Assembly: GCA_002011035.2 (NCBI GenBank)
Contig: MTLY02000003.1
Span: 384,001 to 448,000, forward strand
Reading direction: 5' to 3'
DNA length: 64,000 bases
Origin: Candidatus Hecatella orcuttiae
GTDB lineage: Archaea > Thermoproteota > Bathyarchaeia > Hecatellales > Hecatellaceae
The notes below the pieces were generated by a model. It did not search any database, was not told the DNA's origin, and was given only the letters and a program-made list of their open reading frames with translations. The stretch's first letter is position 1; each line of letters starts with the position of its first letter. Below are positions 15,920-37,629 of the stretch, piece by piece. The translations under genes and the position numbers were made by a program.

Positions 15920-16012
15920 GCGGCCGTAGTCTAGCTTGGTTAGGACATCAGCCTGCCAACCTTGGGAGGCAGAACGCTGAGGACCCGGGTTCAAATCCCG
16001 GCGGCCGCACCA
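15920..16012 (+). tRNA. tRNA-Gly(GCC) with 16-nt intron at 37/38 (15959-15974), encoded CCA
   Basis: Acceptor GCGGCCG/CGGCCGC, anticodon GCC at 15955-15957, T-loop TTCAAAT; central helix CTGC/GCAG with 3-nt bulges CA^A and AA^C. Confidence 0.95.
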
Positions 16013-16395: not shown

Positions 16396-17625
16396 TTAAA
16401 TTCCAGCAGCTATTTTGGCTTCTGTCCATGCTTCAAAGTATTTGTCCCATATCGGTGGATCTGGGTGTTCCCAGTTGTAGAAGATTCCTTTCTCCAACAG
16501 GTCTTCAGGTTTATCCAATCCCAACAGTTTTATTATTTCGGGGTCCGCCAGTTCCCATCCTTTTACATTCGTGGATGCGTAATAGTAAACGTTGGTCAGA
16601 AATTGGCCTGTTCGAGGATCTAAGAAGGCATTTATGTAGTCATGGGCAAGCTCGTAGGTTCCTCTTTCTGGAGAGCCTTCTCCCACATTCATAGCGTAAG
16701 GCCAGATGAACAGAGCCTCTCCCGTCCTGTAATTGGCTCCAGGTGTAAGCCCCAGATAGACCACGTCCAAACCTTCAGCCAACCCTGCAGCGTACAATTC
16801 CGTCCACATGGTTGCAATGGCTACTTCGCCTTCTTTAAGACTTGCAAAAAGCTCATACTGGTCATCGTAGATAATTTTTGCTTGCTTAAACGCTTTCATC
16901 ACCGCATCTTTCCAAGCTTCTATCTGGTCATCAGTAGGATTTTTGAACTCTTCCACTGTAAACAATGCGTCGAACATAGGCCCAGCAATTTCAGAAGGAG
17001 CATCGTACATGGCCGTTCCTACCTCTGCATATTTTGGATCCCACAAGCACGACCAACTGTCAGGCTCTGGTAATCCCGCATCCCGGATTAGGTCTCTTCT
17101 GTAAATAATCGAAGTCATTCCCATATCCGTCACCAGCATATAGAGTTGGCCGTTGTGTCTGCCGTATTTTTCAACTAGTGCTTTAAAGAAAGGATGTACA
17201 TCTTGGTAGTTAGGTATCAAATCTAAGTCTATCGGCTCTAGCGCATCAAACTCCAAATATCTCTTGAAATGAGTCCAATAGCCGCCGAAGTTGGAGGCGT
17301 CAAACCTATCTCCAATCGCTATCCTTGCCAACGCTGAATCTTCATCAGGAAAAATGACGTGCGATACCTTTACATCCGGATGTTTTTCCCTAAACGCAAG
17401 CCACAGTTCTTCAACATCATACCCAGCCCACGTCCAAACTATTATCTCATTAGCTTTCGGTGGTGGTACTGGAGTTGGCGTAGGAGTTGGTGCGGGTGTC
17501 GGGGTTGGGGCTGGAGCGGGCCTTGTGGCCTGCCAAGCGGCGTAGCCGCCCACACCGGCCACCACCGCCGCAACCACGGCGGCGATGCCGTATTTCAGGG
17601 CCTTTCTTCGAGATTCATTACTCAT
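16396..17625 (-). CDS. PotD/PotF-like polyamine ABC substrate-binding protein with Tat-like signal and Pro/Thr linker
   Basis: SRRKALKYG plus hydrophobic helix, PAPTPT repeats, WTWAGY, PDSWSCLWDPKY, AHDYINAFLDP. Confidence 0.8.
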   Translation of the reverse strand: MSNESRRKALKYGIAAVVAAVVAGVGGYAAWQATRPAPAPTPTPAPTPTPTPVPPPKANEIIVWTWAGYDVEELWLAFREKHPDVKVSHVIFPDEDSALARIAIGDRFDASNFGGYWTHFKRYLEFDALEPIDLDLIPNYQDVHPFFKALVEKYGRHNGQLYMLVTDMGMTSIIYRRDLIRDAGLPEPDSWSCLWDPKYAEVGTAMYDAPSEIAGPMFDALFTVEEFKNPTDDQIEAWKDAVMKAFKQAKIIYDDQYELFASLKEGEVAIATMWTELYAAGLAEGLDVVYLGLTPGANYRTGEALFIWPYAMNVGEGSPERGTYELAHDYINAFLDPRTGQFLTNVYYYASTNVKGWELADPEIIKLLGLDKPEDLLEKGIFYNWEHPDPPIWDKYFEAWTEAKIAAGI

Positions 17626-17902
17626 TTTTATATATCTCTCCTAAAAGCGGCTGTTTATTATTCCGGTTCAGATTATATATAAATATTACGGTTTACTGAA
17701 CGATGTTGCTAAGATTTTTTGTTGGGCCGGATTTGCAAGCGTAATTTGCGGACTGCAGGGGTCAAGCTGATTGCTTCATGATTTAGGATCCTATTTATAA
17801 GTCTCTCTGTCACTGTAGAAACCCGGAAAACTCTCGACTAGGTTTTTCTGATTTTTCTAACTAAAGTCAACTTCTCAAATGCCTAGCTTTGAGTTGGCGT
17901 CT

Positions 17903-18679
17903 TCAGGCTGATATTCTTTCGATCATCCTCATCAAAAACGCAAGTCCGATGGCAAAAGACAATATGATGGAGGACATAGCCGTTAAGATTGGCACGAATT
18001 TTGGCAGTTTCATCAGCAAAGAGTAAATATACACAGGCGCTGTTTGCTCTGTCCCGGCAAGGAAAACCGCGAGGGCAACATCTTCCCACGAGATGATAAA
18101 GGCTAAAATGGCGGCCACCGCCACTCCTGGCATTATAAGAGGCAACGTTACTTTCCGAAAAGTGGTGAATTTACCCGCGCCCAAATCCATGGCAGCCTCT
18201 TCAAGACTTATGTCAAGAGCTATGAATCTGGAGGTTAAGACCAAGGTAGTGTAGGGTATGGTGATTAGAATATGACCTATAATGATGACTATTAACGATG
18301 GGTTTACCCCCATTTTTAATAAAAAGGACATCAAACTGAAACCCATGATGATGTAAGGTGTCACCATGGGCATCAGCAAGAGCCCTGTGAAAATTTTTTT
18401 CCCAGCGAAGTTTGTGCGCGCTAGTGCATACCCTCCGCAGATTCCGAAGATTACAGCGGCTCCCGTGGTAACGGAAGCGACCATGAGGGAGTATTTAACG
18501 GCATTTATAGCGGCTGGAAATCGGAGAAGTTCGATGTACCATTTGAGGGTGGGGAAGTTTCTTAAGGGCAGAGTAGAAGTTTCGTTGAGGGATAGCAGTA
18601 ACAGTATGGCGATGGGGAAAAATGTGAGTATCAACAAGAATCCAAGTACGACAATGAACATTATACTCGATTTCGTCAT
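17903..18679 (-). CDS. Polyamine ABC transporter permease (PotC-like)
   Basis: TLKWY, LEEAAMDLGA EAA loop, about 6 TM segments. Confidence 0.85.
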   Translation of the reverse strand: MTKSSIMFIVVLGFLLILTFFPIAILLLLSLNETSTLPLRNFPTLKWYIELLRFPAAINAVKYSLMVASVTTGAAVIFGICGGYALARTNFAGKKIFTGLLLMPMVTPYIIMGFSLMSFLLKMGVNPSLIVIIIGHILITIPYTTLVLTSRFIALDISLEEAAMDLGAGKFTTFRKVTLPLIMPGVAVAAILAFIISWEDVALAVFLAGTEQTAPVYIYSLLMKLPKFVPILTAMSSIILSFAIGLAFLMRMIERISA

Positions 18680-18680
18680 T

Positions 18681-19604
18681 TTAGAGACTCTCCATCAGCT
18701 TCCTGAAGCCGATTCTCCGATAAAGTAGGAAGACCGCTATGAAAGTTATAATCAGCAGATAAACAGTGAAAGCCGCGGCTACATCCCACCTAAACCCCTT
18801 GAGGAAGAAATCGTAGATCAGGTTTCCAAACAATATTCCGGTTCTGCCTCCCACTACTGCTGGAGCTATGAATTCTCCCATCGTCGGAATAAACACGAAC
18901 AAAACTGCTACGAAAACTCCGGGTAGACTCAGGGGAAAAGTAACTTTTAGGAATGTTGTAATGGGCGAAGCGCCCAGATCGTCTGAAGCCTCCAGCAAAA
19001 CTCTGTCTATTTTTTCCAGCGACACGAATATCGGCAGAATCAACCAGGGAAACCATGTGGCAGTTAAAACCAGCCAAACAGAAAATAGGTTGTACCCCAA
19101 TAGTTTGATGGGCTCGCTTATTAAGCCGAAATATAGGAGCAATGAATTTATTACTCCTGTGCTGCCTAACATCAACCGCCAAGCCAGCAATATCAGCATA
19201 TAGGTGGCAAAATAAGGCGCTTGAAACAGGAATAGAACAGTATACTTATTTTTTAAAACTCTAAAGGCTATAAAATAGGCTACAACATACGCGAACAAAA
19301 CGGATGAAGCTGTAACGGTAACCGCTATAAAAAACGTTCGAAGTAGAAGTCTGGCATAATCCGTTCGGATGAATAGTTTTGCATAATTGCTGAGTACGGG
19401 AAAATTAACAACAGTTCTTGTCACAGGACTTAATTCAGCGAAGCTCAAGATTAACACTGAAAAAACAGGAATGAAAAATACGATGATAATCCATAAGTAA
19501 GTGGGTAGAACTAGCAAAAGATCTTTTAACCTTGAGTTGGTCTGTGCCGTGAAAAAATTCCGGAAAGATTTCTTTATACTCATATTACCACTTCCGTTCG
19601 ACAA
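18681..19604 (-). CDS. Polyamine ABC transporter permease (PotB-like)
   Basis: GVINSLL, LLEASDDLGA, FPLSLPG, VFIPTMGEF. Confidence 0.85.
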   Translation of the reverse strand: MSNGSGNMSIKKSFRNFFTAQTNSRLKDLLLVLPTYLWIIIVFFIPVFSVLILSFAELSPVTRTVVNFPVLSNYAKLFIRTDYARLLLRTFFIAVTVTASSVLFAYVVAYFIAFRVLKNKYTVLFLFQAPYFATYMLILLAWRLMLGSTGVINSLLLYFGLISEPIKLLGYNLFSVWLVLTATWFPWLILPIFVSLEKIDRVLLEASDDLGASPITTFLKVTFPLSLPGVFVAVLFVFIPTMGEFIAPAVVGGRTGILFGNLIYDFFLKGFRWDVAAAFTVYLLIITFIAVFLLYRRIGFRKLMESL

Positions 19605-19624
19605 TGGCCTCCAATGGATTTAGC

Positions 19625-20680
19625 CTAGGTTATCAACTTGGAGTCTTTCTTATTCCAACCGATTTTTACCTTCTCCCCAATTCCAAAAATGCCTTCCATG
19701 CCGGGACTGGGCGCTACAACTGAAATGGAGGAACCATTTTCCAGCAAAACTCTGTAGGTGACGACTCGGCCCTGATAATAGGCCTCTTTAACTTCTCCAG
19801 CGAATATATTATCCAACGCGTTTAACTTTCTTCCGATGAAAATTTTCTCCGGCTTGATGGAGACTAAGACTGATCCTTTGGATAGCTGACACTCAGGTGT
19901 GACGGTGATTTTCCCCAGATTATCGACTTCCACTGCCCCATTCTCATACCTCCCTTTGAAAACGTTAGTTCCCCCAATAAAATTAGCCACAAACTCAGAG
20001 TTAGGCTGTTCATAAATCTCGATAGGCGAGCCGATCTGCATGATCTTTCCGGCTTTCATTACGGCTATTTTGTCGGACATCGTTAGAGCTTCTCCTTGGT
20101 CGTGAGTGACGTAGATGAAGGTAGTGCCGACTTCACGTTTAATTCTCTTCAGCTCGACAATCATTTCCTCCCTAAGTTTTAGATCTAATGGTCCCAAAGG
20201 TTCGTCTAGAAGCAATACAGTTGGTTTATTAACCAAAGCCCTTACAATGGCAATTCTTTGTTTTTCGCCGCCGCTCAATTGGCTTATTTTCCTCTTTTCA
20301 TAGCCTGGAAGTCTAACGAGGTCTAACATTTCTTTAACTCTTGCTTTGATTTCGTTTTCCGGTATTTTTTTTATTTTTAATCCGAATGCTATATTTTCAT
20401 AAACGTTGAGGTGAGGGAATAGAGCTAAGCTCTGAAAGACTAGGTTTGTAGGCCTCTTAAAGGGGGGTACATCCGCCATAGGTTCTCCTTCGATGAGTAT
20501 CTCCCCTTCGGTTGGCTTCTCAAAGCCGCTGATCATTCTGAGTATAGTAGTCTTTCCACATCCGGAGGGCCCTAAGAGAGAAAAAAATTGTCCCTTTTCC
20601 ACTTGAAAGGAAACATCGCTAACTGCAACAACATCTCCGAATTTCTTAGTTACGTTTTTCAGTTCAACATCGATCTTCAT
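19625..20680 (-). CDS. Polyamine ABC transporter ATP-binding subunit (PotA-like)
   Basis: GPSGCGKT, LSGGEKQR, LLLDEP, VTHDQ.EA, TOBE-like tail. Confidence 0.9.
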   Translation of the reverse strand: MKIDVELKNVTKKFGDVVAVSDVSFQVEKGQFFSLLGPSGCGKTTILRMISGFEKPTEGEILIEGEPMADVPPFKRPTNLVFQSLALFPHLNVYENIAFGLKIKKIPENEIKARVKEMLDLVRLPGYEKRKISQLSGGEKQRIAIVRALVNKPTVLLLDEPLGPLDLKLREEMIVELKRIKREVGTTFIYVTHDQGEALTMSDKIAVMKAGKIMQIGSPIEIYEQPNSEFVANFIGGTNVFKGRYENGAVEVDNLGKITVTPECQLSKGSVLVSIKPEKIFIGRKLNALDNIFAGEVKEAYYQGRVVTYRVLLENGSSISVVAPSPGMEGIFGIGEKVKIGWNKKDSKLIT

Positions 20681-20796
20681 CTTATCGGACCATTACTGAT
20701 ATATACAGGAAGAAGAATATAAAAATAATCGGTCAAGAAAAAGGCCAAAACATGGAAAGATTAAAACAAACTATGTTCCATTAGTGTTTATGAAAA

Positions 20797-22185
20797 GTGG
20801 AGGATACGCCTCATATGATTCTTTCGTTAGATGAAATTTATAGGAGGACTGAAGATGGTCCGATAGTGGAGGAGGAATATTTCGACAAAAAGCTTTTGCC
20901 CAGAAAACTTCGAGAACTAGCAAAGGAATATGATATTAATTACAATCCGGAAGAGCCCGTTCCAACTGACGACAAGTTAGCTGACGACGTTTTTGAGGCG
21001 GGGAAAAAGTTACTGTGTGATGTAGGTATTCTGTGTGTGGACACAGGTAGGTTGATAAAGTTCTCTGAGGATGAAATTAAAGAAGGACTTAAAGCAGCTC
21101 CAAATAAAATAACCATCGGGCAAGGTGAGAGATCCCGAGAAATAACTGAGAGAAAAGCAGAAGACAAAAAGATACCTTGGCTTGTTCCCGGCCCCAGCGG
21201 AATGCCTATATCAGAGGACTTGGCTAGCGTGATAGCTCAATCCATCGTTCAAGAACCGTTAGCAGAAGGTTACTGGACTCCAACTATTACGAAATATGGA
21301 GGGATGGAGGTAAAACTGCATTCTCCGTTGGAAGTTCTTGCATCAAGATATGAAATTATATCGGCCAAGGAGGGAGTCAGAAAGGCTGGTAAAGAAGGGC
21401 TTCCCATTGTTGGAGGAATGACAGGGTTAAGTCCAGCTGGATTCATCGCTTCTATATTTAATGGAGGATTTACGAGAGGGGACTGTCTTCTCGTAAGCTG
21501 CATGAACGAGTTGAAAATCAACTACGATATCATGACGAAAGTATGGTTCGTTTCAAAATGTAGCGACGTAAACCTGATGTATGATGCCACTCCTCTATTA
21601 GGCGGAATCGCAGGTGGACCGGAAGGCACTGCTTTAGTCTCAGTTGCTCAGGAAATAGAATGCCTGTTGCTGGGAGCAGACCTAAGCGGTGGTAACTCAA
21701 TCGATATTTGGTCTGGAACAAGCTCAGGCAGGAAGACCATGTGGGCCTCTAATTTATTCTTGAACGCCATGAACCGGAACGTCAACGCAATAGAGTATTG
21801 CTACCACTTTGCCGCAGCAGGACCTTGCACAGAAATGCTTCTCTATGAGGGGGCAGCGAAAACCATAAGTGTGGTGGCTGCAGGATACGATTTTCACTGT
21901 GGTCCTTTGGCCTTGAGAGCTGGGAAGGAAGATTACATTTCTCCGTTAGAATTTAGGCTCAGCTGCGAAGTCGCCCATGCCATGGCTGGAATTAAAAGGG
22001 AAAATGCCAATTACTTGATAAAAGAATTATTAGCAAAGTTCGAAGATAAAATTCAAAAACCGCCTCTTGGTAAAAGCTTTACCGAGTGTATGGACTTAAC
22101 TACGCTTCAGCCTTCCAAAGAATGGCAGGCTATCTACGAGAAAGTGAAAAAAGAATTAGAAGACTTGGGAATAAAATTCAAATGA
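20797..22185 (+). CDS. mtmB: MtmB-family monomethylamine:corrinoid methyltransferase homologue lacking pyrrolysine
   Basis: VPTDD.LADDVFEAG, GI.C.DTGRLIKF.EDEI, AGPCTEM, GKSF.EC.D; uninterrupted 462 aa, Val codon GTT (21409-21411) at the aligned Pyl site. Confidence 0.85.
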   Translation: MEDTPHMILSLDEIYRRTEDGPIVEEEYFDKKLLPRKLRELAKEYDINYNPEEPVPTDDKLADDVFEAGKKLLCDVGILCVDTGRLIKFSEDEIKEGLKAAPNKITIGQGERSREITERKAEDKKIPWLVPGPSGMPISEDLASVIAQSIVQEPLAEGYWTPTITKYGGMEVKLHSPLEVLASRYEIISAKEGVRKAGKEGLPIVGGMTGLSPAGFIASIFNGGFTRGDCLLVSCMNELKINYDIMTKVWFVSKCSDVNLMYDATPLLGGIAGGPEGTALVSVAQEIECLLLGADLSGGNSIDIWSGTSSGRKTMWASNLFLNAMNRNVNAIEYCYHFAAAGPCTEMLLYEGAAKTISVVAAGYDFHCGPLALRAGKEDYISPLEFRLSCEVAHAMAGIKRENANYLIKELLAKFEDKIQKPPLGKSFTECMDLTTLQPSKEWQAIYEKVKKELEDLGIKFK

Positions 22186-22246
22186 CCTTTGTATAAGGGG
22201 CGGTCAAAGAAAGTAGCAGGCTTGTCGCGATGCCGCTGTTTCTGGT

Positions 22247-23590
22247 TTACGAACCCCGTATATTTTTGAGAGTGTCATAAGTAGCCTGTATGGTCTTTTG
22301 TATATCTTCCGGCTCATGCATCGCCGAAACCATCCACTCCTCAAACCATGCTGAACCGCTCGGTATTATTCCTCTATTCAACATGTTGATCCAGTATTTA
22401 TTCCACATCGCCGCGTCGCAAGCTGAAGCTTCTCTGTAGTTTTTTGGAACCTTGTCCAATCCGAAGAAGATGCATCCCATCATGGTGCATCTGCCCACAG
22501 CGGCTTTTATACCTGTATCTGCTATGGCGTCTACAACTCCCTTGTACAACTCCTCGCCAAGGTTGTTAATTTTCGCATAGGCATTAGAGGTTAATACCTT
22601 TTTCAGGCAGGCTAAGCCTGCAGCTGTTGAAAGAGGATTGGCGTTATAGGTTCCGTAGTGCACAACACCGCCCAAAGGAGTTATCATCTCCATGTATTCT
22701 CTCTTTCCGCCGAACGCGGCCAGAGGTGATCCGCCGCCGATGGCTTTGGCGAAAGTTACCAAGTCGGGTTCAATACCGTAGAGTTGGCTTCCGCCCCCCT
22801 CAGCTAGATTGCATCCTGTCTTAACTTCATCCAATATTAACAAAATGCCATATTCATCGCAAAGCCTTCTAACTTCCCTGAAATAGTCTTTTTCCGGGGT
22901 TATGATCCCGCTGTTGGTAAGCACAGGCTCGGTTACTATCGCCGCAACTTCGTTTTCATGCTTTTTCAACACTCTTTCCAAGCCGTCGGCATCGTTAAAG
23001 TGAACCACCAAGGTCTGTTCGACGTTCTCCTTCGGTGTGCCCAGCGAGTCGGGAGTGGATGCAGGGTTATGTATCGATCCTAACAGGATGCGTCTTCTGG
23101 GTTTATCGCTTATCAGCAGCACATCGTTTGCTCCATGATAGGAGCCCTCCATCTTAACCACCTTAGTCCTCCCTGTGATTCCTCTGGCAAGCCTAACGGC
23201 ATAGAAAGTTGCTTCCATTCCCGTGTTCGCAAAGCGGAGCATCTCAACATACGGGTACCTTCTCATTATCTCTCTCGCCAATTCATCGGCCCCTTCCCCT
23301 TGAAATCCCAGCAACGTCCCCCGCTCCGCCTGCTCTTTTATCGCTTCAACTATGATGGGGTTAGCGTGACCAGCAGTCATGGCTCCGTAGGCCAGACAAT
23401 GGTCTACATACTCTCTTCCGTCTAAGTCCCATAGCTTGCCGCCCTTTCCCCTTGCCATGTAAAGCGGATAGGGCTTAAAGAATTGGATAGCTGTATTTAC
23501 TCCTCCAGGAATAATCTGAGATAGTTTTTCGAAAAACGCCTTTGAAGCTGGGGTGTTTTTAATATATATATCCTCTTCAGCCAATGCCAC
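22247..23590 (-). CDS. Class III PLP-dependent aminotransferase (GSA-aminomutase-like)
   Basis: IPGGV, DLDGREYVD, GSYHG, LILDEVKTG, TFAKAIGGG (PLP lysine), GTYNANP. Confidence 0.85.
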   Translation of the reverse strand: MALAEEDIYIKNTPASKAFFEKLSQIIPGGVNTAIQFFKPYPLYMARGKGGKLWDLDGREYVDHCLAYGAMTAGHANPIIVEAIKEQAERGTLLGFQGEGADELAREIMRRYPYVEMLRFANTGMEATFYAVRLARGITGRTKVVKMEGSYHGANDVLLISDKPRRRILLGSIHNPASTPDSLGTPKENVEQTLVVHFNDADGLERVLKKHENEVAAIVTEPVLTNSGIITPEKDYFREVRRLCDEYGILLILDEVKTGCNLAEGGGSQLYGIEPDLVTFAKAIGGGSPLAAFGGKREYMEMITPLGGVVHYGTYNANPLSTAAGLACLKKVLTSNAYAKINNLGEELYKGVVDAIADTGIKAAVGRCTMMGCIFFGLDKVPKNYREASACDAAMWNKYWINMLNRGIIPSGSAWFEEWMVSAMHEPEDIQKTIQATYDTLKNIRGS

Positions 23591-24033
23591 GTAAATTCAC
23601 CGTTTTCATTTAACAATCGATGTTTATTTAACATTTTCGACAGGGGGTAGAGGCGGGTCTTTTATTTAATTTTTCAGTTAAAAGGCATCGTCTATGTGCC
23701 GCAATTAATTTATTTCTATTCATAACAAAAATAGGCTCTCTCTTTACCAATTTGCCTTTTATCTTGTCTATACCATCAATTTTCTACTTAGAACTGTGCA
23801 GCTTGATGCATATCTCGGCATAAGTCAATGGACAAACTCCCCTTAAACAACAAGCATTGAGAAAAATATCAAACCTAACTTCAAGATAGACAACAGACTC
23901 CGAATAATTTTTTGGTTAAATTTCTCTCAAAGAAGAAAGGGGGAGGTAATTTGTTAACCCTGCGCATTGCTGAGCTTCATTTCATTTGATCTGCCTGCGG
24001 TGTTGGCAGGATTTTTGATTTGTCGGAGACTGC

Positions 24034-25440
24034 TCAAACTTTCGAGAGTTTCTCGAGGCGTTCTACACAATTAATTTTGATGCCGAGCAGTTCAGCGATC
24101 CTAACTTTAGCTTCGAGTCCTTTCGCTGCACCCGGTAAACCAGTTATAACACCGATGTCAAGTTTTTCCCTAAGCTTTCTCATAGTAAACTCATCACAAA
24201 GCTCTATTGAGGAGACACCTAGCTTTTTAGCGACGTAATCCTTCGCTTCAGGTAGTCTCATTTTCTTTTGCAACTGCATCCTACCAATCAGGTCGCCTGA
24301 TGTTCTGATGCTGCCTATGCCACCGGCTACCAGATGCCCAATGGGCATTCCAATGCAGTCTCCGACACCCACCTAAATGCCATCGACGCCGGCTATCTCG
24401 ATCATAGCTTTGTTCGCTCTAGTTACTGTATCCAACGGTGGTGTTTCTAACATGGGCACGCCGCCTACACCCATTCCCATGTTGGGGTGAACAGGGATAG
24501 TCGCTTCTCTCACGCATGCCTTGGTAAACGTAACCGCCCTGGAGAGATTCCATGGGAAAGTGAGGTGGGGTTTTGTATTTATCACAGGTCCAAATATGTC
24601 GACACCCGCTTTTTCCGCTACTTTAAGTTGTTGATGCGGCCACATTCCAGCCAAACGTTCTCCTGCATATTTCAATTCCGTGTGAAATCCGTGTACAGCC
24701 TCGGTAGCCATACCCATCTGGACAGCTAGGTCGGGGTACACCTTTTTCAATGACTCTGTAGCCGTAAGGGCTGCATAAAAGTCAGGATCTCCCGCCGCTC
24801 CTACTGTATCGATATTTATTCCATCCACGCCTACTCTTCTGAGATGTTTAGCTACATATATTATGGCATCATGACATTCTCGAGCAGCGCCCTCCATAGA
24901 TTTCCTCGCTTCGTCGTTCTTTCCTTCTCTGATCAGAGAGATCGGTTCAGGCCATTGACCATCAGGCTTATAGAAATAGCCTAAGTTGGGCATAGCCATG
25001 AATTCTAGAGGACTGATCGACGTGTGCAGAGTATTGTGGATAACATTCGCCAAATAGCTCACTATTACCTTTGCAGGCTTAAAGCTTCCATCCGATTCAG
25101 GAAATTGTAGTATATCAAGTCCAAGCACCCTTTCAGACAGCGCTCCTTGAGCAATGGAACGTTCAATCGGCATACCTAATCCACTAGTGCCAGAGTCAAT
25201 CCAGAAAGTCGAGCCTCCTGCATCAGCGGACAGGACGACCTCGCATCCATGTTTTACAGCCACAACCTTATTGGCGTCGATGATAATTTCATATAATGTT
25301 TCCAGATCTTCGCCGGTTAATTCGGGTATTTTCGCCCTTTCTGCAGCGTCTTTTGAACCCAATTCTAGGTCGTCTTTGATCTGTTTACCCGTCATGGTGA
25401 TCAGTCTACCATCGCCTCTTCTCGTCAAATGTTCTGGCAT
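24034..25440 (-). CDS. mtbB: Dimethylamine:corrinoid methyltransferase MtbB with in-frame amber (pyrrolysine) codon at 24373-24375
   Basis: Two abutting in-frame ORFs join as ...[22 protein letters not shown]...; TAG is codon 356 of a 468-aa product ending at TGA 24034; SD AGGAGGTGA upstream. Confidence 0.92.
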
Positions 25441-25476
25441 ACGTTCTCACCTCCTTTCTATTTTTATTTGTGAGCA

Positions 25477-26127
25477 TCATTTTTTTAGAAGGCAAGTGCG
25501 GGATGCAAGGAGTCTTTTAGCTTTAACTACAGCATCCATTGCGTCGGCACCCCATTCGTCGGCGCCGATCTCTTTTGCATGCAATTCGGTTGTTGCTCCT
25601 CCGCCCACCATTACTTTAACGTCATCACGAACTCCTGCTTCCTTCAGAGCATCAATTACCTCTCTTTGGGCGATGGCGGTTGTGGTCATGAGAGCGGAAC
25701 AACCTACAAATGCGGGTTTGTGCTTTTTAACTGCCTCTACAAATTTTTCAGCAGCAACATCTCGACCTAGATCGATGACATCGAATCCTTGAGCTTCCAG
25801 CATCGTGGCCACTATACTCTTACCGATGTCATGAATGTCGCCTTCAACTGTACCGATTATGAACTTGGCTTTTTCACCTCTTTTCTTCCTAGGCACTTTT
25901 TTAAGCAAAACGTCCGCAACCTTCTTGATGGCCTCGGCAGAAAGAACTACTTGTGGAAGAAATATCTCTGACCTACCGTATAGATCTCCTACCTGCCTGA
26001 TAGCCTCAGAGGCATGGTCCAACGCCCTTAAAGGTTCAATACCTGCTTTCAGACAAGCCTCAGCGATTTTAACAGCGCCCTCAACATCTTGATTTAAGAT
26101 CGCATTATAGAGCTTATCTAGTTCCAA
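25477..26127 (-). CDS. mtbC: Methylamine corrinoid protein (MtbC-like)
   Basis: B12-binding GTVEGDIHDIGK, SALMTTT, VMVGG; directly upstream of mtbB. Confidence 0.88.
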   Translation of the reverse strand: MELDKLYNAILNQDVEGAVKIAEACLKAGIEPLRALDHASEAIRQVGDLYGRSEIFLPQVVLSAEAIKKVADVLLKKVPRKKRGEKAKFIIGTVEGDIHDIGKSIVATMLEAQGFDVIDLGRDVAAEKFVEAVKKHKPAFVGCSALMTTTAIAQREVIDALKEAGVRDDVKVMVGGGATTELHAKEIGADEWGADAMDAVVKAKRLLASRTCLLKK

Positions 26128-26520
26128 AATTATGCACCCCCTACTTTTTTATATTAAAGTTTTTTTTAAACATAATGTTTCACCCTCTTTTTGGATCTTT
26201 ATTTCAAAATCACTAGCATCTGTCTTCACTTTACAACTTGTTATCGCGGATGTAGCAAATAATTCATTAGCCTACACCGCGGCCTGAAAATATCACTTCT
26301 ACATACTTATCGATGTAGTCCCCTAATTTAGTGGTGTTCATCATAGTCTCGTTGAGTTTTCTCGATCAAAAAATAAGTGAAACGAGTTTTCGGTCTTCTC
26401 GAGGAAGTACGGATATGGTTAAGAATCATAATTCGGCGAGAAAAGGAGTTCCTGTCGGCAGTTTCGCTGGAGAAAAGCATGTCGCCTCAATAATAAGTGG
26501 CAAGGAACTTTTACTAATTA

Positions 26521-26943
26521 TTATGCGCCCAGTTTTTTAACTGTTAATGCGCCTGTGGGGCACCATTCAACACATGCCGGAGAACCTTGACATAGGTCGC
26601 ATATCAGCGGTTTTCGACGTGGTTCATTCATCCTTATCGCCGAGTATGGACATTCTTCAACGCACAATTTGCAGCCTGTGCACTTTTCCTCATCGAGTAT
26701 AACAGCCCCGGTTTTCTCATCTTTTTGGAGTGCTTTCACAGGGCAGACTTGAATACAGGTGGCTTCTTCGCATTGAATGCACGCAACAGGATACACGAGA
26801 GTAGGCGGATAGCTTGTTGCAATGTGGATTCTGGATACTTTCGGATTAAACACTGAGGCTTTTTTGAATGAGCAGATAAGCTCGCATGTTTTACAGTCGG
26901 TGCATTTTTGGCCATCAATCAACAAGCGGATGGAGATAAGCAT
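26521..26943 (-). CDS. 4Fe-4S polyferredoxin subunit associated with AOR
   Basis: Four Cys clusters (CTDCKTC, CIQC..C..CP, CTGCKLC..CP, CDLC..C..CP); start near 26943 after GGAGGTG is uncertain. Confidence 0.85.
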   Translation of the reverse strand: MLISIRLLIDGQKCTDCKTCELICSFKKASVFNPKVSRIHIATSYPPTLVYPVACIQCEEATCIQVCPVKALQKDEKTGAVILDEEKCTGCKLCVEECPYSAIRMNEPRRKPLICDLCQGSPACVEWCPTGALTVKKLGA

Positions 26944-26951
26944 CACCTCCT

Positions 26952-28793
26952 TCACGTTACTAGGTCGGTAAGTTCCAATTCGATAAGCTTCTCCCTCGTA
27001 GGTTCGCCTTCTCGGTTCCACCCTCTCAGTTCATAGTACTCATCGAGCAGCTTAGTCATGTCGTCGGAGGTAACTTTGTGCCCCTTGGCCGGCCCTGAAG
27101 GCAGAGGTTCCCCGGTGAACCGCTTGGGTAAACAGTCGTCTTTCCGCGTAAAGCCTTCGCGAATGTTAAACATGCGGATCAAATTCCATACACGCTCACC
27201 TAGCTTCATAAATTCATCTGCACCTCCCTTCCACCCGGTGGCCAGCGACAACAACTCCGCATAGTGCTCAGGTTGAAGGCCTGTTCGGCTGAAATCGCAG
27301 CAGGGAAGCGTGCAAACAGCCGTAAGCCAATCCTGCTCCCACTTGACGATTTCAGCCTTACCCTTGAGCGAAAGCCGCTCCACGGTGCCGGAGGGTCCGG
27401 GGATTCCCTCAACCTCGTACGCGATCGGCCATCCCCGCTCATGGCAGCCGCCCCTGTCAGCTGTGGCTAGGGCCAGCGCCATTCCCGGGGCTCCCCTGGG
27501 AGGCCACGCCGGCGTCTCCAGCCCCTTGATGCTGACAGCTAAATCTAACGCTCGGCCGCCTATCTTTTCCGAAGCTTGCTTTACGCCTTCAGCCATCAGG
27601 TCGCCTATCCCTTCTCGGCGGGCTATTCTTTCAACAAGCTCAAGCACAGCTTTGGAGTTCCCAAACTTCGGGTTAACCCCTTGGAAATCCTCCGAGGTCA
27701 GAATTCCCTTTTCAAAAAGCTCCATGAAGAAACCTATGACGCCGCCGGTGGATATGGTATCTAACCCCAGTTCATCGCACAGGTAATTTGCGTAAGCCAC
27801 AGCGTCCAGATCCGTGATGCCGCAGTTGGCTCCCAGCAGGCCGGTGGTTTCATATTCCACACCGTCCACCACGGTACCCGCGTAGGGGCCTTTCTTTATC
27901 ATCAGAAGGTGGCCGCATCGAATGGGGCAGGAGAAGCAGGCAACCTTTCTAAAGCGGACGGCCTTGGACTGAATTCTGCCTGAAAGCTTTTCCGCCCCCC
28001 GGATGCTTCCGTCTTGAAAGTTTCTTGTCGGGAAGAAACCTTCAGAGTTGGCGAAATCCACAGACCCCGCGGTTCCGTATTCCGTCCACGTCGCTCGCAC
28101 AGCTTCGCTTTCAACCAGAGCCTTGTGCAGCTTTCTCGCAGCTTTCACAAATTCCTTTGGATTGGCCACCTCCACAGGCTTTGTTCCTCGAACGGCCACA
28201 GCCTTCAGATTCTTTGAGCCCATCACGGCTCCTAGGCCTCCCCTCCCCGCCTGCCGGTAGTCACAGCCGACGCACGCAAACCTGACAAGTCTCTCTCCCG
28301 CCGGTCCGATGCACGCTGTTTTCACCTCGTTGTCGCCGAGCTCTTTTTTGACGGCAAGGGCGGTCTGGGTTATGGTAAGACCCTGAAGGTGGCTGGCGTT
28401 TTTGATTTCCACATGCTCATTGTCGATCCAGATGTAGCTGAGTTTTTCAGCCTTCCCCGTGAGCACCAAGGCATCGTAGCCGGCGTATTTTAGTTCCTGG
28501 CTGAAATAGCCCCCAACATAGCTGTCGCAAAAGGTTCTCGTGAGGGGGGACTTGGAGACCACGATGCCCTTCTGAGCTGGAGCCAGCGTACCTGTCAAAG
28601 GCCCTGTGCTGAATATGAATATGTTTTCAGGGCCAAGGGGATCAGCCTTGGGGGGTAGCTCCTTATACAATATCGCTGCTGCTTGCCCTTTTCCACCGAC
28701 CAGTCTCCTAGCAACAGATAAATCCAATGGCTGCCGGAGTATTCGCCCTGTGGTTAAGTCTATGCAAAGAATATTCCCCTGATAACTATCCAT
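26952..28793 (-). CDS. aor: Tungsten-dependent aldehyde:ferredoxin oxidoreductase
   Basis: KSPLT, GRGGLGAVMGSKNLKA, CFSCPIRC, EYET, GLDTIS, RGGCH. Confidence 0.9.
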   Translation of the reverse strand: MDSYQGNILCIDLTTGRILRQPLDLSVARRLVGGKGQAAAILYKELPPKADPLGPENIFIFSTGPLTGTLAPAQKGIVVSKSPLTRTFCDSYVGGYFSQELKYAGYDALVLTGKAEKLSYIWIDNEHVEIKNASHLQGLTITQTALAVKKELGDNEVKTACIGPAGERLVRFACVGCDYRQAGRGGLGAVMGSKNLKAVAVRGTKPVEVANPKEFVKAARKLHKALVESEAVRATWTEYGTAGSVDFANSEGFFPTRNFQDGSIRGAEKLSGRIQSKAVRFRKVACFSCPIRCGHLLMIKKGPYAGTVVDGVEYETTGLLGANCGITDLDAVAYANYLCDELGLDTISTGGVIGFFMELFEKGILTSEDFQGVNPKFGNSKAVLELVERIARREGIGDLMAEGVKQASEKIGGRALDLAVSIKGLETPAWPPRGAPGMALALATADRGGCHERGWPIAYEVEGIPGPSGTVERLSLKGKAEIVKWEQDWLTAVCTLPCCDFSRTGLQPEHYAELLSLATGWKGGADEFMKLGERVWNLIRMFNIREGFTRKDDCLPKRFTGEPLPSGPAKGHKVTSDDMTKLLDEYYELRGWNREGEPTREKLIELELTDLVT

Positions 28794-28840
28794 ATCTTAT
28801 CATTACCAATTATCCGTTTAAAAAATTTAGTGGTAGAGAA

Positions 28841-28993
28841 TCGGCGCCCCCCCTGCCTACACCATGGCCTGAATATCCCTTCTACATACCCATTGGTGTA
28901 GTCCTCTCTCTGATAGCATTCGTCGTAGTCTCCTTGATAACTCGTCCAATACCAGAAGAAAGGCTGCAGAGATTTTTCCCGACCAAAAAGTAG
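28841..28993 (+). pseudogene. Orphan C-terminal fragment resembling a sodium:solute symporter
   Basis: IPIGVVLSLIAFVVVSLITRPIPEERLQRFF; no N-terminal part because it abuts the aor upstream region. Confidence 0.4.
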
Positions 28994-29274
28994 AAAATGA
29001 AAAGACTTTCCAACCCCCTCAAGAAAGTATACGTATGGCTGAGAATGATTGGTTCGACGAAAGAAAGAATCCCCTCAGCAACTTCGCCAGAGAAAAACAG
29101 CTACTCTAAATTTACCACGGACTACGGGGCTATGCAGGGTTTTTAAGAAACCTGTCAAGATTCCGAATGGCATCGGTGAAATCGATGAAGAATTATGTTA
29201 AATATGGGTAAGGCTGATAAACGCTTGATGAAGGTGTTTTATTAATTCAAAGCAGACTAATCTTAAGAATACGA

Positions 29275-30450
29275 TTATATTTTTGACAACTCTTTTTCTC
29301 TCAGGATTAGTACGGCTCCAGTGAACTGGTTGTCTTGATTTTCGATGGGGGTAGTGTAAATGAACGTTCTCAGAGGGCTTCCTCCTTTCTTCAGGAACTC
29401 AAATTCATGAACTTCATCGAACCTATGTTTCCGCCTGTTTTTTATGCTATGGAGAATTTTTCCCCATCTCTGACTGCAGAACTCCTCAAGATTCTTGCCC
29501 ACCATCTCCTTTGATGTGTATCCGAGCATCTCAGCAGTCCTTGGGCTGACATATGTAGTGTTGAACTCTGCGTCTACAAGCCATAAGCCTGTCTCTCCTT
29601 TCATGGCTGACGTCCTCTTTGGGGGAAGTTTTGTTTTTAACAGGGTATCCACAAGTTTAAAGGGGTCCGCTGAGCTCCACATTTCCTCGAAGAATCTTTG
29701 GTATAGCCTTGTCCAACCTTTGCTGTTCAGCCATATATCTCTACAGCAAGAGTTCGATGGCCATCTTTCCATGTCTATTGCTATTCCGACAATGGTCCAT
29801 TTATCATCAATAATCATCGTGTGAAAGGGGATTCTGGAAATTTGTCTTAACTCTGCAAACTTATTGCAGATTTCAACCTCGCGGATGATTGTCTCGTCAA
29901 CCTCCGTAAGTATCCTCACCGGCATCCTGTGAGAGCATTTTCTTAATATGTCAACGAGACCATGATACTCCGCCAGATAAAGACCTGCCCCTGGCACCAT
30001 GTAGTCTATTTTGTTTTCCGCCGATTTACATAATGCGATCTTTTTACTATAGACTTGTTTCATTCCAGTCAAAATTTGTATGCCTTCTCTTTCTTCTCTC
30101 TCTTCTTCTTTCTCCTCACTTACTGCTTTCAGAGCGTCGACGAGCCTAGCTTTGTTAGATGCTATTCTGTTCACTCTTTCTCTTTCAGCCGCTAATAACC
30201 AATCTACAAGCATCTCAGGTTTAACGGCTTTAAATTTTTTAGGCCGTTCCAATAAAGACTGGATAAGTTCCCGTCCTTCAAGCTTCTTAAGTATGCGGTA
30301 GACTTCAGGCCGAGGGATTCCTGCCCGACGGGCTAACTGGTTTGCGGTTAGGTCTGAGCTATATTTTATTAGTGTAACCAGTACTTTAATGTCGTTTCCA
30401 GATAAGCCGAACTCGCTTAGGTTCTGTACAATTTCTTGTTCTTTACTCAA
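29275..30450 (-). CDS. TrmB-family regulator with C-terminal PAS domain
   Basis: LSEFGLS...GIPRPEVYRILKKLE HTH; PLD-like IIDDK effector domain; PAS-like GLWLVD..TTYVSPRTAEMLGY. Confidence 0.8.
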   Translation of the reverse strand: MSKEQEIVQNLSEFGLSGNDIKVLVTLIKYSSDLTANQLARRAGIPRPEVYRILKKLEGRELIQSLLERPKKFKAVKPEMLVDWLLAAERERVNRIASNKARLVDALKAVSEEKEEEREEREGIQILTGMKQVYSKKIALCKSAENKIDYMVPGAGLYLAEYHGLVDILRKCSHRMPVRILTEVDETIIREVEICNKFAELRQISRIPFHTMIIDDKWTIVGIAIDMERWPSNSCCRDIWLNSKGWTRLYQRFFEEMWSSADPFKLVDTLLKTKLPPKRTSAMKGETGLWLVDAEFNTTYVSPRTAEMLGYTSKEMVGKNLEEFCSQRWGKILHSIKNRRKHRFDEVHEFEFLKKGGSPLRTFIYTTPIENQDNQFTGAVLILREKELSKI

Positions 30451-30506
30451 AATAATGTCCTTAACATTGTTATCGATGTTGTAACTTAAAAAGGTTACAC
30501 TACTTT

Positions 30507-30821
30507 ATGACAGATGACCGATTTAATACCCTTAATAAGAGAATGTTGGATTTGAAGATCGAGAAAATCGGAAAAACCACAACCGTAGCTGTGCTAATTT
30601 TGATATTCCAAGCCGGCTCCGTGAGGCATAGGGACATAGCTAAACATGTTCCAAGCAGAGGGGCTTTATCTTCAGCTCTGAACTCTCTGCTGGAAGAAAA
30701 ACTCGTAACACGTCAAGTGAACACCGAATCCATGCCAGCTCAAACCTACTACACCATAACCGAGAAAGGCAGGGAAGTGGCGAGAAGATTTGATGAAATC
30801 ATAGATATCTTAAAAGGCTGA
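30507..30821 (+). CDS. HxlR/MarR-type winged-helix regulator
   Basis: LSSALNSLLEEKLVTR....P..T.YTITEKG. Confidence 0.7.
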   Translation: MTDDRFNTLNKRMLDLKIEKIGKTTTVAVLILIFQAGSVRHRDIAKHVPSRGALSSALNSLLEEKLVTRQVNTESMPAQTYYTITEKGREVARRFDEIIDILKG

Positions 30822-30906: not shown

Positions 30907-31443
30907 ATGAATAAAACCTCCATTATTCACAATATTCAAAGTAACGAGCAAATGAAGATGAAAAATTTAAGATACGAACAGGAGATCATCGAGTTTTTCT
31001 CACTTTTTAGAGAGAATAAAGCGATCAGCATACCTCTTGAGGCCTTCATGGATTTCAAGAAGGCTTTAAAGGACTGTTTTGGCTCCGGGGGAGTTGTAAT
31101 CTTAAGTGAGATGGGAAAAGGCCATGGCATATATTCAACCAAGCGTTTACTGGATGAACATCCTAATAGACCCAGCTTGCTAGAAGTCATAACCAGCTAC
31201 AAGCAAAAGGAGGGATGGGGGAACATGGAATTTAGAATGAAACCTTCCGAAGCGGAAGTTATTATAACTAAAAGCTTCGAGGCGGAGTATCATGAGAGGT
31301 CCAAAGAACCTGTTTGCCACTTCTTGAGAGGCTACCTAGAAGGGGTCATAAGCCAAATCGTCGGCAAAGAGATAAAAGTTTCGGAAATCCGCTGCAAAGC
31401 AACAGGGAACGAGACCTGCGTTTTCAAAATACAACCGCCATAG
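30907..31443 (+). CDS. V4R (4-vinyl reductase) domain protein
   Basis: GWG, SFEA, PVCHFLRGYLEG, E..CKATG..TCVF. Confidence 0.85.
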   Translation: MNKTSIIHNIQSNEQMKMKNLRYEQEIIEFFSLFRENKAISIPLEAFMDFKKALKDCFGSGGVVILSEMGKGHGIYSTKRLLDEHPNRPSLLEVITSYKQKEGWGNMEFRMKPSEAEVIITKSFEAEYHERSKEPVCHFLRGYLEGVISQIVGKEIKVSEIRCKATGNETCVFKIQPP

Positions 31444-35377: not shown

Positions 35378-36439
35378 ATGGGAAGCGTAAAGGATCTGGA
35401 AATTGTAAAGAAGCCGACGAGAGAGGAGATGGGTATAGGGCGTTTCCATTTCTCCGATCGGTACTCGGTCTTCGACTGGGGGGAGATGCCGGATTTAATC
35501 GAAATGAAGGGTGCAGCTCTCTGCGTGATGGGCGCCTACTGCTTTGAGAAGCTGAAGGAAGACGGGATAAGAACGCATTACAGGGGACTGGTAACAACCG
35601 AGGGAAAGCTCGTCGAAACCTGCGAGCTGGAAAAACCTGTCAATGTCATGGAAATCGACCTCGTAAACGTGCTTCGCCCTCGCTCCTACAAAGAGGAGGG
35701 GAAACTCAAATACGATTACAGCATGTTCACCCCAAGCTTAACCAATTTCCTTCTGCCCTTGGAAATAATATACCGAAACGGGCTGCCGGAAGGGTCGTCG
35801 GTTTTCAGGAGGTTGAAGCAGGGGCTTAAGCCGGAAGACCTTGGGTTAGATCACTATCCCCAGCCGGGGGAAAAACTGGAAAAACCCATCTTCGATGTGA
35901 GCACGAAGTTGGAGGAAAAAGACAGATACGTCACCTGGCCGGAGGCCGAGGAAATAGCTGGCTTAACCGACGAGGAGATGGAGGAGGTCAAAAACAAGCT
36001 GCTCCGCATAGACAGCCTAATCAGCGAGATCGCTGCAAAAGCTAACCTAAACAACGAGGATGGAAAAATCGAGTTCGCATTCGACAACCGCAGGAGACTA
36101 ATGGTTGTGGACGTGGTCGGCACCTTGGACGAGTGCAGATTCACCTACAAAGGTTTGCACGTGAGCAAGGAGATTGCAAGGCAGTTTTACAAAAAAACGA
36201 AATGGTACAGAGACGTAGAGGAAGCGAAAAAAGAAGCCGACGCCAAAGGGATTAAAAACTGGAAAAGCATATGCAAATCCAAGCCGCCGAAGTTGAACCC
36301 TAAATTGAAGAGGATCATACGCAACCTCTACATGGCAACGGCGAACGAATGCACGGGACTCGACTTGTTTGATGCGCCTCGTCTCGCGGACACGGTGAAG
36401 GAATACCGAGAATATCTGGGTGAGAATGATGGACCGTAA
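35378..36439 (+). CDS. purC: SAICAR synthetase (long archaeal form)
   Basis: MGSVKD, FSDRYSVFDWG, STKLE, DGKIEF, DVVGTLDECRF, SKE. Confidence 0.9.
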   Translation: MGSVKDLEIVKKPTREEMGIGRFHFSDRYSVFDWGEMPDLIEMKGAALCVMGAYCFEKLKEDGIRTHYRGLVTTEGKLVETCELEKPVNVMEIDLVNVLRPRSYKEEGKLKYDYSMFTPSLTNFLLPLEIIYRNGLPEGSSVFRRLKQGLKPEDLGLDHYPQPGEKLEKPIFDVSTKLEEKDRYVTWPEAEEIAGLTDEEMEEVKNKLLRIDSLISEIAAKANLNNEDGKIEFAFDNRRRLMVVDVVGTLDECRFTYKGLHVSKEIARQFYKKTKWYRDVEEAKKEADAKGIKNWKSICKSKPPKLNPKLKRIIRNLYMATANECTGLDLFDAPRLADTVKEYREYLGENDGP

Positions 36440-37526: not shown

Positions 37527-37629
37527 GACATTTTTGCGGCTGGGGTTTAAATTTCACCAAAAGGCGTAAACAGCGGAAAAGAGAAGATATGGGTGAAAGC
37601 TTCCCGCTTTTAAACTGGGTGGTGGTGGA

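Follow-up and report, generated by a model that had tools for sequence, protein, structure and literature searches.

A putative module for N-methylated amines beside a probably separately regulated unit with dimethylamine methyltransferase and aldehyde oxidoreductase genes in a GC-poor island of Candidatus Hecatella orcuttiae

The 64-kb stretch analysed here, from the genome of the non-methanogenic sediment archaeon Candidatus Hecatella orcuttiae (G000:C3:384001-448000; hereafter the window, within which positions are given unless a contig is named) contains a GC-poor island that we read, with moderate confidence, as a horizontally acquired mosaic of two units: a conserved amine module and a separately regulated mtbCB/aor-fd unit. 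The first (16396-23590) appears to be a rare conserved module made up of a four-gene ATP-binding cassette (ABC) importer, a methyltransferase of the MtmB family without pyrrolysine (Pyl), here called gene E, and a class III aminotransferase, gene F. The second (24034-30450) comprises mtbB, an adjacent corrinoid protein gene (mtbC), genes for an aldehyde:ferredoxin oxidoreductase (AOR; aor) and a ferredoxin (fd), and a regulator; we take it to be controlled independently, and the first unit need not include it. An earlier note, made from the DNA alone, had joined these genes into one pathway in which an N-methylated compound is imported, demethylated and transaminated and the resulting aldehyde oxidised. 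All the genes it listed are present and intact according to Pfam and NCBIfam profiles. The link between importer, MtmB homologue and transaminase has stood up, whereas the inclusion of MtbB/MtbC and AOR-ferredoxin has not, as these accompany the module in one of three lineages.

Import, demethylation and transamination are the steps supported by synteny. The importer, of Pot architecture, would take up an N-methylated amino compound, E would pass its N-methyl group or groups to a corrinoid protein and F would convert the unmasked primary amine to an aldehyde or ketone. Participation of MtbBC and AOR-ferredoxin in this pathway is plausible, though we would not count on it.

The importer genes (16396-20680, minus strand) are divergent from E (plus strand), in the four-gene layout that the earlier note had described. 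They encode a solute-binding protein of remote PotD/PotF type (16396-17625; PF13416 (SBP_bac_8), 45.9 bits), a PotC-like permease (17903-18679) and a PotB-like permease (18681-19604), both with PF00528 (BPD_transp_1) and both below the cut-offs of the corresponding models (PotC 133 bits, PotB 141 bits), and an ATPase of the PotA subfamily (19625-20680; PF00005 and PF08402 (TOBE_2)) whose score on TIGR01187, 355.6 bits, equals the cut-off. This four-gene architecture, with its PotA-type ATPase and TOBE_2 domain, matches the PotABCD/PotFGHI layout. The binding protein gave 25.9 bits with the PotF model (cut-off 636) and 39 bits with PotF structures, and only four homologues were found at E<=1e-20 in a large protein collection. 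It seems, on this remote likeness to PotF, not to be orthologous to PotD or PotF, and a polyamine or diamine substrate would be a guess based on a very weak resemblance.

Gene E (20815-22185, plus strand) gave 347 bits with PF05369 over residues 13-459 and contains no in-frame stop, in agreement with its earlier description as a Pyl-free MtmB. Its reading frame opens at 20797; the ATG at 20815 is the likely start and gives a protein of 456 aa, the length of its orthologues. When compared with the MtmB1 structure 1L2Q (233 bits, E residues 13-461 against 11-458), a valine of E aligned with Pyl202. E is 32-37% identical to each of the 11 other MtmB-family paralogues in the genome, and 32% identical to the Pyl-MtmB among them. 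A search of 5.8 billion proteins placed it in a small clade, together with seven other clusters that are 51-80% identical to it; beyond these, the best match is at 40% (226 matches at E<=1e-50). These eight rows fell on one side of a branch with SH-aLRT 100 in a quick maximum-likelihood tree of 51 rows. The nearest named relative (74%) is labelled Hadesarchaea archaeon. A search of a genome-contig collection with E alone returned a single bacterial locus, 35% identical over 60 residues, which is irrelevant.

Gene F (22247-23590, minus strand; PF00202 (Aminotran_3)) is convergent with E. It does belong to the class III aminotransferases, as had been claimed, with the correction that it is a HemL paralogue below the hemL equivalog cut-off: it reaches the subfamily score of NF000818 (433.7 bits) and not that of TIGR00713 (432 bits against a cut-off of 527.3). 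Its best solved relatives are glutamate-1-semialdehyde aminomutases (GSAMs; 325 bits to 2E7U). A canonical hemL is found elsewhere, at C3:665888 (612.8 bits on TIGR00713). Four F-clade sequences were aligned with three true HemLs, and this showed a changed N-terminal motif and an insertion of 8-9 residues in a loop of the F clade, with a conserved pyridoxal phosphate (PLP)-lysine region. The N-terminal motif is GGVNTAIQFF in F and GGVNSPVRAF in the genome's own HemL, where the arginine presumably binds the carboxylate of the substrate. F is best regarded, from this comparison, as a diverged HemL paralogue and not as the housekeeping HemL of this organism.

The flanks of an E orthologue could be read in three lineages: the window; two near-identical metagenome contigs, L084 and L085, which were counted as one; and contig G229:C15 (= L086), from a Bathyarchaeon of another family. 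The E of L084/L085 is 75% identical to that of the window and 88% identical to a Hadesarchaea-labelled protein. Gene order and orientation in this block differ from those of the window, and nevertheless all six unit 1 genes are linked at 68-84% identity: besides E these are F, again convergent with it (84%), the ATPase (78%), the PotB-like and PotC-like permeases (72% and 68%) and, on the opposite strand, the binding protein (76%). A corrinoid protein directly before E and a second corrinoid protein are 43% and 42% identical, respectively, to the MtbC-like protein of the window. An uninterrupted MttB-family gene (L084:9374-10873 and L085:8367-9866, both minus strand) has no counterpart in the window; it contains no TAG, gave 450.5 bits on the model for Pyl-type trimethylamine methyltransferase (cut-off 525) and adjoins its own corrinoid gene at the end of this Hadesarchaea-like module. 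In G229:C15 a corrinoid gene and E (58%) are arranged tail-to-tail with F (75%).

An F orthologue (75-84%), therefore, stands tail-to-tail beside E in all three lineages, and all four importer genes (68-78%) are near the E-F pair in two of them. Of the combination for which the earlier note had suggested a neighbourhood search (potABCD, non-Pyl mtmB, class III aminotransferase and aor), mtmB and the aminotransferase are together in all three lineages, potABCD is with them in two and aor in one. As the E clade and the binding protein are both rare, chance co-occurrence of the module genes is unlikely, and as the gene orders of the window and L084 differ, the linkage has survived rearrangement.

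The surroundings of F in other contexts bear on its role. An F orthologue (74%) at L076:648-5556 (G294:C53), without E or any MtmB homologue, adjoins a hydantoinase/allantoinase-like amidohydrolase, a carbamoylase-type M20 enzyme and an amino-acid permease. The F of G229 has an ArgE/DapE-type deacylase as its neighbour, and a zinc-dependent alcohol dehydrogenase and an enzyme of the aldehyde-oxidase/xanthine dehydrogenase (XDH) family lie <=6 kb from the E-F pair. We infer that in each context F follows an enzyme that would unmask a primary amine, whether by decarbamoylation, by deacylation or, in the case of E, by demethylation, and it is because of these neighbours that F is proposed to catalyse the amine-to-carbonyl step. 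A conserved pairing of F with an M20 enzyme was also considered and was dropped, as the M20 enzymes of G294 and G229 are unrelated to each other. Upstream of the G294 cluster are genes for a dihydroorotate dehydrogenase-like protein, an ornithine transcarbamylase (OTCase) and an XDH-like protein.

The distribution of these genes was surveyed in a sample of 300 other genomes of the class. An E orthologue was found in one genome, F orthologues in two and the binding protein in none (E<=1e-30); MtbB was present in three, all of one genus and at 46-51% identity, and the closest AOR was 55% identical. In none of 13 same-family genomes was E, F, the binding protein, MtbB or a close relative of the AOR found. 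The left edge of the island is marked by a tRNA-Gly (GCC) gene (15920-16012, plus strand; ARAGORN, and 59.4 bits with the Rfam tRNA model), at which the GC content drops from 0.585 to 0.463. From this tRNA to about 31.5 kb it is 0.452, compared with 0.53 in the rest of the window and 0.518 in the genome. The drop in GC and the absence from same-family genomes are the reasons why the island looks horizontally acquired. Transfer is also supported by the difference in affinity between host and module: the named relatives of the host transcription factor TFB (70-80% identity) are Candidatus Bathyarchaeota/Bathyarchaeia, and the nearest named relative of E carries the Hadesarchaea label.

The host housekeeping genes that flank the locus, CdvA among them, are archaeal. 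Same-family relatives of the proteins flanking the island are 44-64% identical, and the two flanking genes are on different contigs there. No integrase and no direct repeat of the tRNA were seen, and an Rfam search matched only the tRNA and PYLIS_2 in the island. Logan contigs from four DNA runs were identical in sequence, and none of them joins across the island.

In unit 2, the earlier claim of a Pyl-type MtbB with its corrinoid protein was confirmed. The mtbB gene (24034-25440, minus strand) gave 592.7 bits with PF09505 (Dimeth_Pyl), the match running through a TAG at 24373-24375, and 495.8 bits with TIGR02368 (cut-off 369.1). This TAG is the only one, and a PYLIS-like element begins at it (24276-24375, minus strand; Rfam RF02509 (PYLIS_2), 44.5 bits with a gathering score of 36, E 5.8e-8). 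The adjacent gene (25477-26127, minus strand; PF02310 and PF02607) encodes an MtbC-like protein, the only corrinoid protein in the island, which shares 58% identity with its MtbC counterpart in the canonical cluster elsewhere in the genome. The MtbB is a paralogue, 57% identical to a second copy at C1:341461 in the pyl cluster, and this degree of identity would leave room for a changed substrate.

The pairing of AOR with a ferredoxin was likewise as described. The tungsten-type AOR (26952-28793, minus strand; PF01314 482 bits, PF02730 251 bits) gave 509 bits to the Pyrococcus furiosus AOR 1AOR, compared with 363 to formaldehyde:ferredoxin oxidoreductase (FOR) and 266 to BamB, and 44 bits with the GAPOR model; its AFOR_N and AFOR_C domains and its closest structure mark it as an AOR sensu stricto. 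The 4Fe-4S ferredoxin-like protein (26521-26943 within an open reading frame of 26521-27021, minus strand; Fer4_11 and related families) has its likely start at the ATG at 26943, 8 nt after the aor stop, with a Shine-Dalgarno-like GGAGG.

What sets unit 2 apart is a shared upstream element. The non-coding regions upstream of mtbC (26128-26520, minus strand; core 26262-26351) and of aor (28794-29274, minus strand; core 28855-28945) are paralogous over about 240 nt, with cores that are 75.6% identical over 86 nt (blastn, E 2e-9). Within the 1.75-Mb genome there are no further copies, and in the 161 loci compared (1.25 Mb) the element was matched only by copies of this same region, which argues against a mobile repeat. 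The possibility that the element is a small gene was ruled out by stops in all six frames. The cores hold a palindrome, WACAT-N8-RTGTW, which has four sites in the window compared with 0.18 expected, every one of them within 24.4-30.5 kb, and this count was reached in none of 100 shuffles. One site is upstream of mtbC (26300-26317), one upstream of aor (28883-28900), one inside mtbB and one (30463-30480) between the HxlR-like gene described below and the gene for a TrmB-type helix-turn-helix protein with a PAS domain (29275-30450, minus strand; PF01978 and PF13426). This TrmB-PAS protein is a candidate regulator of mtbCB and aor-fd, and these genes, probably with the regulator gene itself, are read as a small regulon separate from the conserved module. 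The promoters of E, F and the importer showed neither the shared element nor the palindrome.

The genomic neighbourhoods point the same way. In the other two lineages, neither MtbB/MtbC nor AOR-ferredoxin is present in those parts of the module flanks that could be read, and no AOR was found beside MtbB at the four other Bathyarchaeia MtbB loci. Metagenome loci with distant MtmB homologues were also inspected, 24 of at least 6 kb being counted and 35 of the 59, which were shorter than 6 kb, left out. A corrinoid gene is present at 18 of the 24 and an ABC ATPase at 17, and neither an AOR nor a class III aminotransferase occurs at any. The island is completed on the right by two genes with a GC content of 0.42-0.43, identified by Pfam: one for an HxlR/PadR-like winged helix-turn-helix protein (30507-30821, plus strand) and one for a V4R-domain protein (30907-31443, plus strand) that forms its right end.

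The fate of the methyl groups was considered in the context of the whole genome (G000; 1.75 Mb in three contigs, 97% complete), in which no match to McrA was found. The earlier note had seen neither MtbA nor RamA. This is true of the locus and not of the genome, where the recommended search for MtbA, RamA and Wood-Ljungdahl genes found six genes of the uroporphyrinogen decarboxylase (URO-D) family (MtbA/MtaA-like), one RamA, two MtrH, CdhC and Mch. A methyl sink via tetrahydromethanopterin (H4MPT) and carbon monoxide dehydrogenase/acetyl-CoA synthase (CODH/ACS) is encoded in the genome. As the genome lacks Mcr, the methyl groups would be expected to pass to MtbA-like or MtrH methyltransferases encoded elsewhere and from these to the H4MPT/Wood-Ljungdahl route.

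A cluster on C1 holds pylS and pylBCD together with Pyl-type MtmB, MtbB and MttB; PylS gave 279 bits (cut-off 178), and a radical-SAM gene, an ATP-grasp gene and a PylD_N-domain gene beside it are read as pylB, pylC and pylD. Pyl genes have been reported in some Bathyarchaeia (PMC9723677). There are 12 MtmB-family genes, 11 of which have no internal stop, and 22 B12-binding matches, 15 of these in frames of 215-244 aa. One B12-binding match, at G000:C3:364469-364720 (minus strand), lies in a 217-aa frame containing one TAG; it may be a pseudogene, or else encode a corrinoid protein whose frame includes an amber codon.

The corrinoid partner of E is a point at which the two units may meet. The E orthologues of L084, L085 and G229 are each preceded by a corrinoid gene, and in the window there is none, only a divergent intergenic region of 117 nt. 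The best match in the genome to the corrinoid partner of E in L084 is 49.5% identical. With the corrinoid gene of E lost here, and with MtbC as the island's sole corrinoid protein, unit 2 may serve unit 1 by providing MtbC as the corrinoid carrier for E.

Several points weigh against the two-unit reading. Enzyme activities, substrate class and order of steps are what we infer, whereas gene content, synteny, the cis element and the genome inventory are observed. No importer orthologue was found in G229, which is 79% complete, and F is evidently not exclusive to the module, as the G294 case indicates. The block shared by the window and L084/L085 may, at 68-84% identity, descend from one transfer, in which case the linkage is independent only through the rearrangement and G229. 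E could be decaying in part of the population, given the absent corrinoid gene and a 2-base deletion inside E (window 21264) in one Logan contig, from run X5, that is not present in the contigs from X6 and X7. The deletion itself would be an assembly error in that contig or a frameshift that some members of the population carry. Finally, the case for two separate units depends on the lack of the element at unit 1 promoters and on just two other lineages in which AOR and MtbB are missing. Three of the six AOR genes in the genome lie <=6 kb from MtmB-family cassettes, at three of the nine MtmB loci (C1:512816-519067; C3:404833-412142, which is window 20833-28142; and C3:604930-609605; permutation P = 0.005), and this enrichment argues for more coupling of the units than we have assumed.

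The explanation that survives best beside the two-unit reading, and to which we assign a minority chance, makes use of this coupling. It holds that all ten genes form one integrated pathway for a single multiply N-methylated amine, from which E and MtbB remove successive methyl groups via a shared MtbC before F transaminates the product and AOR-ferredoxin oxidises the aldehyde to the acid. The missing corrinoid gene of E, with MtbC at hand, fits this well, as does the location of all the genes within one GC-poor island. In L084/L085 E is paired with a second substrate:corrinoid methyltransferase (MT1) of another class, the MttB-family protein with its own corrinoid gene, so that two MT1 are present in two of the three lineages, and the alcohol dehydrogenase and aldehyde-oxidase/XDH-family enzyme of G229 could provide a non-orthologous aldehyde step. 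AOR genes are also found near MtmB homologues in two of ten regions from other Bathyarchaeia, L054, which also has a class III aminotransferase, and L056. L020, one of the three MtmB loci of this genome that have an AOR gene nearby, shows a paralogous layout: a Pot-like importer runs divergently from a corrinoid gene with two MtmB homologues, after which comes fd-aor; its proteins are 22-45% identical to those of the window, the 22% being that of the binding protein on the assumption that P0124 is the one belonging to L020.

These arguments for a single pathway are opposed by the absence of AOR and MtbB from the module flanks of the other two lineages, by the lack of AOR at the four MtbB loci and of AOR or a class III aminotransferase at the 24 metagenome loci, and by the shared upstream element, which ties together only mtbCB, aor-fd and the regulator and leaves out E, F and the importer. 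The MtbB, moreover, exceeds the NCBI equivalog cut-off for a plain dimethylamine methyltransferase. The AORs could also be a ferredoxin-linked redox valve during methyl oxidation, a role that would explain the association without a shared carbon substrate.

In its fullest form the route, complete and anaerobic, would let a non-methanogenic archaeon degrade a multiply N-methylated amine: E and the Pyl-MtbB paralogue, the latter neofunctionalised, would strip methyl groups in turn with one shared corrinoid carrier, after which the HemL-derived transaminase and the tungsten AOR would feed the carbon skeleton into metabolism and reduce ferredoxin. We consider this full route unlikely, and the same reserve applies to its Hadesarchaea-like version, in which a Pyl-free MttB homologue would take the place of the Pyl-MtbB paralogue. 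If true, it would be, to our knowledge, the first corrinoid system shown to demethylate a substituted amine all the way down to the primary amine.

It is improbable that there is no pathway at all and that the genes are accidental neighbours, with F a spare HemL-type enzyme that boosts the supply of tetrapyrrole (cobamide) for corrinoid proteins and an importer that takes up ordinary polyamines. The GSAM subfamily score and GSAM relatives of F, the potA subfamily score of the ATPase and the wealth of B12-binding proteins in the genome would all suit such an arrangement. It does not sit well with the retention of the E-F adjacency in all three lineages despite rearrangement, the altered motif and loop of F in a genome that has a canonical hemL, the distance of the binding protein from PotD/PotF, or the catabolic, not tetrapyrrole, contexts of the F orthologues in G294 and G229.

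That the genes cooperate while E takes methyl groups from O- or S-methyl compounds and not from amines, or acts as a methylating enzyme, is very improbable. In its favour, just one Pyl-free MtmB homologue has a known substrate (PMC13044021), the E clade is 32-37% identical to all other paralogues and Bathyarchaeia are known O-demethylators, though via an unrelated MT1 of about 300 aa (PMC10989822). Against it, the conserved partners of E are an aminotransferase and an amine-type importer of Pot architecture, each of which requires a substrate that contains nitrogen, and MtqB and MtmB act on N-methyl groups. The published lignin O-demethylase of Bathyarchaeia was dropped as an explanation of E, as its MT1, of about 300 aa, is unrelated (PMC10989822).

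Some other features of the genome may be recorded. One clade, at 46-72% identity, takes in seven of the 11 Pyl-free MtmB paralogues; these are at loci L013, L014, L017 and L018 (C1:1-20000, 174000-194000 and 505000-535545), with Bmp/PnrA-type ABC importers and genes for amidohydrolases, dihydropyrimidine-dehydrogenase-like and XDH-like proteins, OTCase and carbamate kinase as neighbours. These loci look as if they serve to break down N-methylated N-heterocycles or nucleobases. A UPF0182-domain protein of 976 aa (31795-34725), encoded in the window at the island's right edge, has a paralogue 64% identical on the same contig, at G000:C3:129451-131949; it was found in only two of the 13 same-family genomes (E<=1e-50). 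Further on (36420-38715), two tandem DUF1246 + DUF1297 paralogues adjoin a SAICAR-synthase-like gene, an ordinary context for archaeal purine biosynthesis.

Pyl-free MtmB homologues are common in uncultured archaea. The module described here offers three linked handles on a substrate, namely a dedicated binding protein, a methyltransferase and a transaminase, the last of which has to take what demethylation leaves, and discovery of the substrate is therefore directly testable with recombinant proteins. If the proposal is true, Bathyarchaeia and Hadesarchaea-like archaea in the subsurface and hot springs would draw on methylated amines for methyl groups and carbon skeleton alike, with no methane formed, and methanogenic precursors would be diverted into acetogenic or fermentative routes. 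The locus also illustrates how such modules pass from one archaeal phylum to another and are then remodelled, in this case with the cognate corrinoid gene lost and a Pyl-type MtbBC and AOR adjoining.

No published description of a module combining a Pyl-free MtmB-type enzyme, an importer and a transaminase was found in the full-text literature, a search that did not cover subscription journals or supplements. The nearest functional precedent for E is MtqB of Methanococcoides methylutens Q3c, a Pyl-free MtmB homologue that demethylates tetramethylammonium and choline; this 2026 publication calls it the first function for the group, and MtqB is the sole such homologue with a demonstrated substrate (PMC13044021). 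Both it and E are MT1 of the MtmB fold without Pyl, presumably working with a small corrinoid protein, which in the case of the E orthologues is encoded directly upstream. The likeness is one of fold and of the absence of Pyl. E differs in occurring in a non-methanogen, in having no adjacent corrinoid gene here and in its linkage to an ABC importer and a transaminase, a linkage that the accessible part of the report does not mention for mtqBC (PMC13044021). The fold of Methanosarcina barkeri MtmB1 (PDB 1L2Q/1NTH) is shared over the full length, with the difference that E has no in-frame TAG and has a valine in place of Pyl202.

The MtbB/MtbC pair of the window resembles that of methanogens in its scores on the family models, the expected TAG, the PYLIS-like element, the adjacent corrinoid gene and the presence of pylSBCD in the genome. 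It differs in that this MtbB is a second copy, in an Mcr-free Bathyarchaeon, with an upstream region in common with aor-fd, a sharing not seen at the four other Bathyarchaeia MtbB loci. MtgB/MtgC and related non-Pyl MttB-family systems demethylate quaternary amines, as described in the available portions of PMC13080624 and PMC6855144. They too combine a Pyl-free MT1 with a cognate corrinoid protein to demethylate a substituted amine in a non-methanogenic context, and L084/L085 do carry an MttB-family gene, but the MT1 there is of the MttB family and that of the module has the MtmB fold. The known non-Pyl MttB-type systems go no further than a single demethylation, and no link of theirs to a transaminase is known.

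As for F, HemL provides both the best family and the best solved relatives, and the PLP-lysine region is conserved; the score below the equivalog cut-off, the altered N-terminal motif, the loop insertion and the separate canonical hemL set it apart. A parallel to unit 1 plus AOR in architecture is the putrescine route of E. coli, in which the Pot-type importer PotFGHI is followed by PatA, a class III aminotransferase that makes an amino-aldehyde, and by PatD, which oxidises the aldehyde. The components are not orthologues (the L084 orthologue of F gave 133 bits for PatA, against 612, and the binding protein 25.9 for PotF, against a cut-off of 636) and, in the arrangement proposed here, a tungsten AOR would be the aldehyde enzyme and a demethylation step would be added to the route.

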